From NCBI GenBank assembly GCA_000165345.1, contig CM000431.1, positions 1,035,353 through 1,099,352 on the forward strand: a DNA stretch of 64,000 nt, read 5' to 3'. Of this stretch, positions 51,001 to 57,000 are shown one piece after another. Position numbers: made by a program. Every line of letters starts with the position of its first letter. Positions within the stretch are counted from its first letter, which is position 1.

Positions 51001-54000
51001 TATATTTGCAGCATTTACTACCATAACAAGGCCAGGGCAAAAACCATCAAAAACAAAAGACTTCGTTAATACTTCTAGCATACTCATTCCAAATGACCAC
51101 ACATCGCTTTCCTTAAAAAATCCCTCTTTTCTTAGTACTTCAGGTGCGGCGTAATATGTATTCCCATAGTCAGTAAAAGGTGAATAACCGAGTTTTGAAT
51201 CTATAGATATTGCAATTCCAAAATCTCCAACCTTTCCAATACAATTTTTCCCAACTTTAGATACGAAAAAATTACTTAATTTTAAATCCCTGTGCAAAAT
51301 ACCTAGTTTGTGTGCATGTTCCATACCTATTGCAATATCCCTCAGCCAAGAGAGCATTTCCAATCTACTTGCTGAATATTTAGATCTGAGTTTTTGGAAT
51401 TCACCATTATTGTTATTAATTAAATATTGATCCATACTTCCGCCTTCACAATTTTCCAACAATAGAGCTTCACATCCCATATATAGCTGAGTAACGCCCA
51501 GGCATTGCACAATATTTGGATGTGGCGAAAGATAACTTAAAATCCTTGCTTCCCAATTCCTCATTTTAACTGAAGTGGGAATATACTTAAATAAATTTTC
51601 TTTTAATATACTCTCTCGTCTATACTTATAAATATAGCAAATAGGTAAATTATCTACGCTTTTTAAATCTTTGCTTTTGTTATTGTAATTGTCAAAAAAA
51701 TATTCTAAAACATCATTACCATTTCTATATTTAATTCTCTCTTTAGAGCCCAACTCTTCATAATTTTCAGTATCAAACATAAGAACTTTACAGATGACTT
51801 CTTGAGATTTATAATTCCCACTTAATATAACGCAATTATAATTACTTGAAATATAGCTTCCTAATTCTATTTCTGATCGGTTAATGTAAGGCAGGATGCT
51901 TAAGTTTTTAATATTAAGATTTTCAATCAGAGATAAATCCATATAATCAAGAAACCCCCAAAACTGCCGAAACAACCTCAATATAAATCTTCTTGAATAA
52001 TTATCCGAAATTCCGAGCTTTTCAATCAACTGATCGTTAAGAATAGGAATATCACTCCCAGAAAATTTATGATTTTGAAATATCATCGCTTCTTCTAGTA
52101 ATCCAATTGAAAGTAGAATAAGGGAAATAGTTTCACTACTCCATTTATAACAATCGCAAGCATAAATAGAAGTTGAAATTAGTTGTTTAAATATTAAGGT
52201 TTTGAAATTACTACATGTGTTGTCCTGTGTATTAGCCCCATTCAATTTTATTGATTTTTTTTCATTAGTATAATTTTCAGTCAAAATATCAATTTTTTTT
52301 TGGTGGTAATTATTGTAAATATCTGTTGAATTATATAGAACTATAGGTTGATAAATAGCTTGATTATTTATCTTATACAAGTTTTCAAAGCTTCTCGTGA
52401 ATACATTTTTTTCAGTGAATTTAAATTCTTCTATTTCATTCAACAACGAAGTATTTGAATTTCCCGAGAGTTCGATTTGCTTTGAATTCGAAATTAGGCA
52501 AGTCTCTAATACTTGTCTAGAATTTTTAGTTTTACTAAAGTCATTAACGTTTAAGTTTTCAGAAAATATGTTAGTTTTCTGTGTTTTTTTATCCAAAATA
52601 ATTTCTGTTTCTTTTCCCCAAATAATTTGTGATTGATACGAATTTGAATCTCTATAAAAGTAATCTTTATAACCAAATTCAATCATAGAATTAGCTTGTA
52701 ATATATATAACCCTATTGCTTGGTCTTTATACCACATTCCCTCATAAATAATTTTGTTTTTATCAGCTAAAAAACCCCATCCATGCCTCTGGCTTTCCAA
52801 AGTTTCGCCATAATAAAAAAATATTTCATCATCATCAATATCGAGCAATAAATACAAATTTTCGATAGAAATTATTATATTTTTTTTCTGAACTTTATTT
52901 TTTTTGTGTGTTATATTATCATTTCTCAATTTCTCAATAGTAGTATTCTTTGCTTCTCTGTCATATAATCCTATTCCCCCGCTATTAAATACTACTAAGC
53001 TTCTTATCTCCAAATATTCCGTCTTTGAGTATATATTAAAAGACTCCTTGTGCATTTTTTTGTTTAATTGCATAAAAATTAGTTTAATTTTGGTTTATAA
53101 TTTTAAATAATATAAATATATTCATCTGAAGCGTTATTTTTCAATAGTAATTAGTACATTTTCTACCTTTAATATTTTGAAGATATAACAATTAGTTGTT
53201 TTAAATAAGCATTCTATTGTTGTCGTTACCATTTACTTTACTCCTGATCATTTTAATCCATTTGGCATGTTAATTACAATTAAAATGCAATTTGTTGGCG
53301 GATGATTTTGGCGCTCATACGTGTCTTAATTCTTAAAGTCAAATATCTTGGATTATTTCTGGCTCTTTTTAAATAGGTAAGTTTTCTATTTATTTAGAGA
53401 GGTAACAGGGATGATTAGAACTCTACTATAGTGCAAATAATGTTCGTTTTGAACTCCTTGCGCTACAGTAAAACCTGGAAGTATATATACAATGCCAGCT
53501 GTCATAGTTACTCTGACCTTACGGCCTCTCTACTATAGAGTATATTAATTTTCACAGCTTTTATTGTAAATTATTGAGAAAGGTTGAAATGTTATCGAGT
53601 CTCAAGGTGAATAAATAAAGTCAATACTATAATATAGTTTTTATATAGACATTACTATTACGCTATTTATTCCTTAATTATATTTTTCTATGTCGAGTAT
53701 GTTCTGTGGCTTTCCAAGTTTACTATTAAACGCTCAATGTGGTCATTGGGTAGCCTTGAGAGTGATGGAATTAAACTCTGAGAAAGATTAGGTTTTCATA
53801 CAAGCTGGGATGCTTCATACTTACCTTTGCTTCATCAGGAGTTCTGGGTAATAGATTAACTAAAGATGCTATTTCGAATTCGTGTAGTTTTGTTGTTTCA
53901 TCAAGGGCCCTGAAATTAATATTCGTTAATTCAATTTAGATTATTTATACATGTGACTTACTCTCTAATTAGTATAACAGATGCTCTATTTTTTATCTTT

Positions 54001-57000
54001 CCAAACTTATATGAATAGTCGTAGGCGGACTTTATTAACGTGTGAGCTTCATCAGATCCAGATGGATAGGTTCTCATTCTGTCTTCAAGTAGCAATCTAA
54101 GTTCACTCAAATTAAGGCATTTTATTCCGTTTAACTCTAAATTTTGGGTAAGAATCAACTCATAAGATAAAAGAATAAAGTTGCATTGGTAAATAATTTA
54201 ATTTTTGAAAATAAAACTAGTAATTAATATTCCTCTTACGGAATTAAACCGAAAATAATAGGTAAATATATTGAAGCCTTGCAACTCTATAACAAAATTA
54301 CCGAACATACCTTTTCCAAACTCTAATTTTTCGATATCAAAATTATCATCTGACATCCTTATATATTATTTAAAAAAAATAAATCAATTTTTTAATAAAT
54401 TTCTTTAATATTTAGCGCTGAATGTACAATTATCTTTTTTTTTTTTTTTTTTTTTTTTTGATTGATTACAATCATTAATGTAACAGATTTTTGTATGTAA
54501 AAGAATGAAGGTAAGTTAATTGACATTTTTAATTTTAAATATTTCATGTTATTAGGTTGCAGTGATTGGATGTTGCCATGGCGAACTCAATCGGTTATAT
54601 ATGGAAGTGGAGAAATATGAAAATGAGAAAAATGAAAAAGTTGATTTAATATTATGCTGTGGTGATATGCAAACAATAAGAGACGAAAATGACTTACAAG
54701 ATATGGCAGTTAAATCGCATAGATCGAAAAAAGGAGATTTTTGGGAATATTATGAAGGATTAAAAAAAGCCCCTAAATTGACTATTTTTATTGGTGGGAA
54801 TCATGAGACTCCAAATGTTTTGATTCCACTTTATTATGGAGGATGGGTGGCTCCAAACATTTTTTATCTGGGTAGTTCTGGAGTTATTCGAGTTGGAGAT
54901 GTTAGAGTTGCAGGTATTTCAGGTATTTATAAAAATTATGACCATTTTAGAGGTTATTATGAATCAAAACCATTTACTGAAGAAAGCAAAAGGAGCTGGT
55001 ATCATATTAGATGGCTTGAAATTCAGAAATTGTTACTTATTGAGAATATAAAATCCAACTTTTTAGGTTCTACTGAGTCTAGAAAAGTAGATGTGATGAT
55101 TTCTCATGATTGGCCAAATGGGATAGAAAGATTTGGAAACCTAAATTATCTTATAAGAAGAAAGCCGTATCTCAAAGAAGATATTGAATTAGGCAGGCTT
55201 GGAATTCCTGGTTGTATTGAACTCATTGAACATTTAAGGCCAACATTCTGGTTCTCAGGCCATCACCACTGTTTCTTTGACGCTTCAATAGAATTTGAGA
55301 ATCAACTATATTCATCTGAATTTAGAGCAATTGACAAGTTTAAAAATTCAAATTCGCCAGTAAGATATTTTGATATAAACAGTAATAAAAACGATGTTCG
55401 TATTTATCTAGATTTTGAGTGGCTAACGATACTTAGATCTGTTAAAGCAAATATTCCAAAAGGAAATTTTACAATAGACAAAAATTCAATTCCAAAATTA
55501 AGTGGGCCAACCAAATCTGATATTGATGCTATATATAAAAATCTTAAAGAAGTAATTGGGGACTTTGATGAAAATCACTACGAATGGCCTCTATGGGGCC
55601 AAGCAAATGGAAATTTTAAAAATTTACAAGATCAATATAATTTTATTAACAGAATTATTGAATAAATTTATCCATTTAATAAATTATCTATCATAAGCTT
55701 TCAAATTGGCACTATTATAATATTTTTTCAATTACAATATTGTGTATTAAAATTATTACCCGTTCTAAATTGGCGTATTTATTATCATTATTGTTCAAAT
55801 AACTAAATACTATCGATTTTCATAGTAGTAAAAGAAAGATTTCTTATACATTACATTCAATAGAATTAAAAATCATCTCTGAAGTTAATGCTTTACTTTC
55901 ACTAAGTTAAATTCGCAATTAACAAGAAATTTCTTTATACAACAAAACGACTTAAATCAAGTAATATTTGTTGCAAAGAATAATTTTACTATTAAGCTTA
56001 TAAAATATTCAAAAACATGAATATTTAGCTTCTAAGGTAAATAATTTTCAAATACTAAAGCCTAAATATTGGTAAAGTTTTGTATTAAGTGTTTTAAAGA
56101 ATGCAAACTAAGCTTTCAAGTACACTCAGCTCGGCTCTCCTTAATCATTTGATTCTATATATTAAACAAATATTGTCAAACTATTTTAAAACGTTTAATA
56201 CATAAACATCCAATGTTTAACTGTTTATACTGCAGGAGATTTTCATATCTAAATTACGAAGCTCCGCAATAGATTGCACCAAAAATGAAGCTTTGCACGC
56301 TTTAAATGGCGACTGCGTAAACAAAGCAAGAATAACTTGCTCATAAGTAGAAATTTTTTTTCACAAAGTACTTAATTATTAGGTATTTTACATTTTATCG
56401 GGAAAATTTCTAAATGCAATAAGCTATAAACCATCAATTTAATTATAAAATTTAATCGGATGAATTAAAGTTATTTTGTACGAAATATATTAGTTTCAAA
56501 ATGAATATTTAATATTATCAACTTTTTTGTACATTAACAATACTTGCATAAAAAAAATAATTAGATTCAATATTAACTACCCCACACTTGGCGGGAATGT
56601 CAACCCCACACATTCTGCATATTTTTTGATTGCAAGTGGCAACAATAAACAACATTAAATATCAAGAATAAATTTAGGTCAAAAATAACTATCAAGTTAA
56701 AGTCTATTTTTATTCTATACATTTGATAATATTGTTAGATTGAGGTAACATGTATTGCGCAACTCCCAAAGAGCAATAACAATAATAAACTAAATTCTTT
56801 AGTAGAAATTAATATAAAACAGTGAATAATTCAAGTAGGAAAGAAAATGACCTCAAAAATAATTGACAACTTCGATAATACCTGTTTATCAACGCCTAGG
56901 CGTTCCAGAAATATCGAAGATGAAACAATAGCATTGGCTCCGGATGCTCGAAGAGCAGTTCGTAAACAATTTAATATTGAGTTTATTAATACTAGGGAGT

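Follow-up and report, generated by a model that had tools for sequence, protein, structure and literature searches.

Rpb4 pairs with Rpb7 as the stalk of RNA polymerase II (Pol II), and the Pfam family PF03874 (RNA_pol_Rpb4) covers Rpb4 and the RNA polymerase III (Pol III) subunit RPC9 alike. The genome of Cryptosporidium is known for massive intron loss. About 10.8% of the C. parvum genes contain introns, and those that do have 2-10 exons, with a mean of 2.6 (PMC4637869). In this study we analysed a 64-kb window of C. parvum DNA (64,000 nt of contig CM000431.1; positions given below are those of this whole stretch) and focused on a minus-strand gene, RPB4, located at 53688-54356. An original prediction, made by reading the window, had proposed here an unannotated RPB4-like gene of four exons, in which the frame required by homology could be kept only with two single-base corrections, and which was therefore taken as a possible frameshifted pseudogene or a copy with two base-call errors. 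Our results indicate that the locus is almost certainly an intact, functional, single-copy RPB4 (locus tag suffix 3g4320), and that the supposed frameshifts are errors of the first reading. Removal of three short spliceosomal introns would leave a 396-nt coding region for a 131-amino acid (aa) Rpb4, the presumed partner of Rpb7 in the Pol II stalk.

Structure of the RPB4 gene

The spacer between a kinase gene (50818-53073, minus strand) and the lariat debranching enzyme gene DBR1 (54505-55665, plus strand) does contain a minus-strand gene, as had been proposed. Its exons were located by reading the minus strand of 53400-54700, and were spliced and translated by script. The gene spans 669 nt, from 54356 to 53688, and the coding sequence ends at the latter position and not at 53674, where the end had first been placed. 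The predicted layout of four exons and three GT-AG introns, with canonical donors (GTATGT or GTAAGT) and the acceptors TAG, CAG and CAG, was borne out.

Exon 1 (54356-54311, 46 nt) starts with the ATG at 54356-54354, comprises codons 1-15 together with the first base of codon 16, and encodes an N-terminal peptide that is conserved among the Cryptosporidium orthologues; an in-frame TAA is found 12 nt 5' of this ATG. Intron 1 (54310-54137, 174 nt) extends from GTATGT (54310-54305) to TAG and interrupts the reading frame in phase 1, after codon 15. It is followed by exon 2 (54136-53962, 175 nt) and by intron 2 (53961-53910, 52 nt; GTAAGT at 53961-53956, ending with CAG), which is inserted in phase 2 in codon 74. 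Exon 3 (53909-53825, 85 nt) is separated from exon 4 by intron 3 (53824-53778, 47 nt; GTAAGT at 53824-53819, ending with CAG), a phase 0 intron placed after codon 102, with a branch-point-like motif CTAAT about 15 nt from the acceptor. Exon 4 (53777-53688) is of 90 nt, including the TAG stop codon at 53690-53688.

When joined, the four exons give 396 nt, a multiple of three, and encode 131 aa with no internal stop codons. Retention of any of the three introns leads to a truncated protein: if intron 1 is kept, a stop occurs after 52 aa, intron 2 introduces a TAA stop at once, and intron 3 leaves the frame open for 17 extra codons.

In the list of open reading frames (ORFs) of the window, the gene is visible only as two fragments, one of 66 aa (53958-54158), contained in exon 2, and another of 52 aa (54198-54356), which is why it was thought to be unannotated. 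This description is correct for the ORF list; the public annotations of C. parvum carry exactly the four-exon model.

As a separate matter, the presence of a non-coding RNA inside intron 1 was considered as an explanation of its length of 174 nt. This candidate was rejected: the intron is not conserved (22-39% identity; 78 nt in C. muris) and has no Rfam match.

The supposed frameshifts

Both frameshifts of the original prediction are transcription errors: a single base was invented, and the resulting slip of the frame persisted further downstream. The first of them had been placed in exon 3, at CACGGAATTC. No such sequence is present in the region, where CACGAATTC is found instead (53884-53876), encoding H-E-F in frame. 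The second had been placed in exon 4, at the sequence CTCAAGG, which exists (53760-53754), yet is read in frame as L-S-R. Since a G had been inserted where none exists, a second 'correction' was needed to regain the frame. The coordinates assigned to the sites were also off by a few bases.

The match to PF03874 is unbroken across residues 22-124 of the translated product and spans both alleged frameshift sites. The conservation of these sites was examined in an alignment of 15 sequences, composed of apicomplexan homologues and one 187-aa metagenome sequence. Around the first site, L82 and E86 are invariant and F85 is invariant or nearly so; around the second, P106 and L108 do not vary, and R110 hardly does.

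Nothing in the sequence speaks for a frameshifted RPB4 pseudogene or for a copy with two base-call errors, as this proposal rested on the non-existent motif in exon 3. Against it stand the continuous 131-aa ORF, obtained without any frame correction, the invariance of the residues flanking both sites, and the evident purifying selection (see below). Moreover, an identical protein is encoded in four C. parvum assemblies, and the length of 131 aa is shared by the proteins of C. hominis, C. meleagridis, C. ubiquitum, C. felis and C. bovis. The tblastn search of the 64-kb window for a second, intact Rpb4 copy matched only the four exons, apart from noise at an E-value of 7.7. In the light of these data, the idea of a broken gene has practically no chance of being correct.

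Assignment of the product to Pol II Rpb4

The conceptual translation of RPB4 gave a significant match to PF03874 (E-value 1.7e-13; 51.3 bits versus the gathering cut-off of 25.6), covering positions 1-113 of the 116 in the profile. The top matches of a phmmer search against the PDB were Pol II Rpb4 subunits, namely that of Drosophila (9mu7_D, 2.9e-17) and the human and bovine ones (5flm_D and 2c35_A, ~1e-16). Residues 5-129 of the product align with residues 14-140 of human Rpb4, i.e. almost end to end. Judged by this alignment, the matches to human POLR2D given in the original prediction were essentially right, and all of the peptides quoted in it are present in the RPB4 translation.

As PF03874 spans Rpb4 and RPC9, and some of the database entries are named 'Rpb4/RPC9 core domain-containing protein', the gene might encode Pol III RPC9/C17 or another Rpb4 paralogue instead of Pol II Rpb4. 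For this reason, a profile of homologues was searched against the PDB at E<=10. This apicomplexan profile reached Rpb4 chains with E-values of 9e-32 to 4e-11, plant NRPD4 with 7e-4, and archaeal Rpo4 with 3e-3 to 2e-2, and no RPC9/C17 chains were found by it at the threshold applied.

The AlphaFold2 (AF2) model of the product contains seven helices and has a mean predicted local distance difference test (pLDDT) score of 72.7. When this model was used as a Foldseek query, ranks 1-35 were all occupied by chain D of Pol II, with template modelling (TM) scores of 0.58-0.64 to the human Rpb4 chains and a probability of 1.00. Yeast C17 (7z1l_D) and human RPC9 (7ast_I) appeared only at an E-value of ~1, below at least 35 Rpb4 chains. 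The predicted structure has the Rpb4 fold, all-helical and with an HRDC-like domain at the C-terminus; this supports, but does not decide, the membership of the protein in the Rpb4 group.

Together with the end-to-end alignment with human Rpb4, the profile and fold searches make an RPC9/C17 or other paralogue extremely improbable. The protein is an Rpb4 orthologue, and RPC9/C17, NRPD4 and Rpo4 are all less similar to it than Pol II Rpb4 is. The identification of the four-exon gene as RPB4 is backed by the Pfam, PDB and fold searches, and equally by the synteny of the orthologues and the conservation of the introns (see below).

Three points weigh against the view that the locus is a functional gene of a stalk subunit. 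The pairing of the product with Rpb7, its docking on the 10-subunit Pol II core and its function in the stalk are predicted from homology. The AF2 model is of moderate confidence, and its N-terminal 20 residues have pLDDT values below 50. Finally, splicing in vivo is deduced, with indirect support: the publication on the IOWA-ATCC assembly and its annotation, whose text does not contain the accession CP044420.1, reports the introns to be 100% RNA-seq-supported (PMC8744675), which is a statement concerning the whole annotation rather than this particular locus.

Conservation and history of the introns

The annotated proteins of C. bovis (locus L003) and C. muris (locus L004) can be reproduced only with three GT-AG introns, which occupy the same codon positions and have the same phases as those of C. 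parvum. Exons 2-4 are of identical length in the three species (175, 85 and 90 nt, respectively). The introns measure 192, 96 and 78 nt in C. bovis, and 78, 57 and 78 nt in C. muris. Comparison of C. parvum, C. bovis and C. muris revealed exon identities of 61-83%, with no gaps except for one codon in exon 1 of C. muris, and intron identities of 22-51%, with many gaps. RPB4 evolves under purifying selection, with pN values of 0.12-0.21 versus pS of 0.76-0.80 (the synonymous sites are saturated). A second C. parvum isolate (L001) carries three substitutions, one synonymous and two intronic, and no indel. The gene neighbourhood, i.e. DBR1 located head-to-head upstream and the kinase gene downstream, is kept in C. 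bovis, C. muris, C. ryanae and C. canis.

Two of the introns have counterparts outside the genus. Intron 1 occupies the same alignment column, and is in the same phase, as an intron of 290 nt in Eimeria tenella, and the position and phase of intron 2 are common to C. bovis, C. muris, E. tenella, Babesia gibsoni and Theileria equi. Since introns 1 and 2 also occur in other apicomplexans, at least these two have been retained from an ancestor. All of the Cryptosporidium species included here have intron 3, which the orthologues of Eimeria, Babesia and Theileria lack. Conversely, the Eimeria, Babesia and Theileria lineages have an extra phase 2 intron near codon 47, which is missing in Cryptosporidium. 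The original prediction considered three introns to be unusual for an intron-poor genome. This holds only mildly, given the share of intron-containing C. parvum genes mentioned above and the fact that at least two of them are of ancestral apicomplexan origin.

Deposited annotation and mis-spliced models

The closest database match to the RPB4 product is a 131-aa protein of C. hominis (99% identity), and the exact 131-aa product has been deposited for C. parvum under the accessions QOY42784.1, WKS77182.1, WRK31673.1 and KAL5369787.1. The exact matches bear the name 'RNA polymerase Rpb4' and the locus tag CPHLJ_3g4320 (CHM_3g4320 in the case of the C. hominis orthologue), and the exact RPB4 sequence was found on four contigs, each of more than 1 Mb. 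Between the window and C. parvum chromosome 3 of assembly GCA_015245375.1 (CP044420.1) there were 0 mismatches over 6,669 nt, and the gene annotated there also spans 669 nt. The RPB4 gene and exactly the four-exon model are therefore already public, and the locus represents an ordinary, known housekeeping gene. A literature search for the locus tag cgd3_4320 found no paper.

Several other deposited models depart from this structure. The C. parvum Iowa II entry of 2004 (EAK89296.1/XP_626974.1; 124 aa, described as 'partial') has no exon 1 and retains intron 3, which is also retained in the C. hominis models of 119 and 84 aa. In the 122-aa model of C. tyzzeri, intron 1 is shifted and intron 3 retained, and the 147-aa model of the chipmunk genotype I results from an in-frame read-through of intron 3. 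The C. ryanae model (107 aa) is truncated, and its C-terminus diverges after ...DEAK, at the exon 3/intron 3 boundary. For C. canis there are models of 96 and 115 aa, the latter of which extends into a downstream snoRNA-like element (described in the next section). The keeping of intron 3 accounts for the wrong 119-, 122- and 124-aa models, which end with ...EAKVSMKHPSLYENLIFLRV. All species with mis-spliced models can encode the conserved 130/131-aa product of a four-exon RPB4. The mis-spliced Cryptosporidium RPB4 entries are P0003, P0004, P0006, P0007, P0008, P0027, P0028 and P0029.

It may be asked whether alternative splicing, with retention of intron 3, gives rise to a functional isoform with a different C-terminus (the VSMKHPSLYENLIFLRV tail), as the models of C. 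hominis, C. tyzzeri and C. parvum Iowa II all run through this intron, and the 17 codons added by its retention are open. However, retention would delete the most conserved C-terminal segment of the protein (SLIPSL...LES, with the invariant residues I105, P106, L108 and L123). The sequence of intron 3 itself is not conserved, as it shows 36-37% identity between C. parvum and C. bovis or C. muris, and its length differs by numbers that are not divisible by three. In addition, the newer annotations, which are RNA-seq based according to their authors, splice intron 3 out. We find such an isoform highly unlikely. The models retaining intron 3 look like prediction errors.

Neighbouring genes and an antisense snoRNA-like element

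The DBR1 gene is divergent from RPB4 and lies upstream of it, with its ATG at position 54505. It contains an intron of 45 nt (54511-54555; GTAAGT...TAG) right after codon 2, and its spliced product is of 371 aa and starts with MKVAVIGCCHGEL. The product has a match to Pfam Metallophos and retrieves solved Dbr1 structures at an E-value of 5e-54. Because of this early intron, the ORF track opens the gene only at an internal GTG (54562), and the true N-terminus, MKVA, is lost from it. The ATG codons of RPB4 and DBR1 are separated by a spacer of 148 nt (54357-54504), which includes a 27-nt A/T homopolymer run (~54434-54460). The head-to-head layout of the two genes occurs in at least five Cryptosporidium species, including the four named above for synteny, and the spacer probably serves as a compact, shared bidirectional promoter. 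The kinase gene, located downstream of RPB4, encodes a protein with a C-terminal protein kinase domain.

The spacer between RPB4 and the kinase gene harbours a conserved element of ~110 nt (~53405-53520, plus strand), antisense to RPB4, which resembles a C/D-box small nucleolar RNA (snoRNA). A C-box-like RTGATTA is found at 53411-53417, and the D box CTGA at 53513-53516 is preceded by a 12-nt guide, GTCATAGTTACT, that is invariant. We presume that this guide (GUCAUAGUUACU) is complementary to a conserved motif of the large subunit (LSU) rRNA, AGUAACUAUGAC. The element is 77% identical to its C. bovis counterpart over 126 nt, versus the 22-51% found for the RPB4 introns, and it is present in five Cryptosporidium species (in the window and at loci L003, L004, L008 and L009), in the same orientation and at an equivalent place. 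Its terminal stem covaries (CAGG/CCTG, TAGG/CCTA, CAAG/CTTG). A search of Rfam with the element gave only a sub-threshold match to the Giardia snoRNA GlsR7 (19.5 bits, E-value 0.18). Based on these sequence features, the antisense element is a probable C/D-box snoRNA.

A broader suggestion has two parts, namely that this element may be a snoRNA as yet uncatalogued in Cryptosporidium, and that intron 3 of RPB4 could be a lineage-specific gain. Taken jointly, they are put forward tentatively, and we are inclined to doubt that both are correct. Intron 3 could equally be an ancestral intron that was lost in the other lineages.

In the whole 64-kb window, no tRNA genes were identified by ARAGORN, and no Rfam families were found at the gathering threshold. 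The GC content is 25-33% throughout the window, as would be expected of C. parvum.

RPB4 of C. parvum in comparison with known Rpb4 proteins

The result of this analysis is mainly a negative one: a conserved Pol II subunit is unbroken in C. parvum, and the apparent anomaly arose from one misread base. It is also of practical use, as all of the mis-spliced deposited models listed above could be corrected to the conserved four-exon model with its 131-aa product.

The gene described here does not differ in any respect from the C. parvum RNA polymerase Rpb4 already present in the databases (QOY42784.1 and others), with which it is identical. Pol III RPC9/C17 and archaeal Rpo4/RpoF belong to the same Pfam family or superfamily as its product and share the same fold of a stalk subunit (Foldseek E-values of ~0.1-1). 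However, their matches are far weaker, with Rpo4 reached by the profile only at the E-values given above and RPC9 undetected by sequence.

The similarity to yeast Rpb4 (221 aa; 1nt9_D, 1y14_A) concerns the C-terminal HRDC-like region (residues 50-126 of the query), with E-values of ~4e-9 in the single-sequence search and 3e-15 in the profile search. In contrast to the Cryptosporidium protein, which represents a short, metazoan-like form, yeast Rpb4 is considerably extended, both at its N-terminus and internally. The human and bovine POLR2D proteins (5flm_D, 2c35_A, 5iy6_D) differ from the C. parvum product in sequence, with an identity of ~30-34%, and the N-terminus of the Cryptosporidium protein is 11 residues shorter. 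On the other hand, they can be aligned with it end to end (E-values of ~1e-16 with the single sequence and 9e-32 with the profile), and they share with it the same all-helical fold (TM score of ~0.6) as well as the motifs KLHxFE, NLxP and LIPSL.

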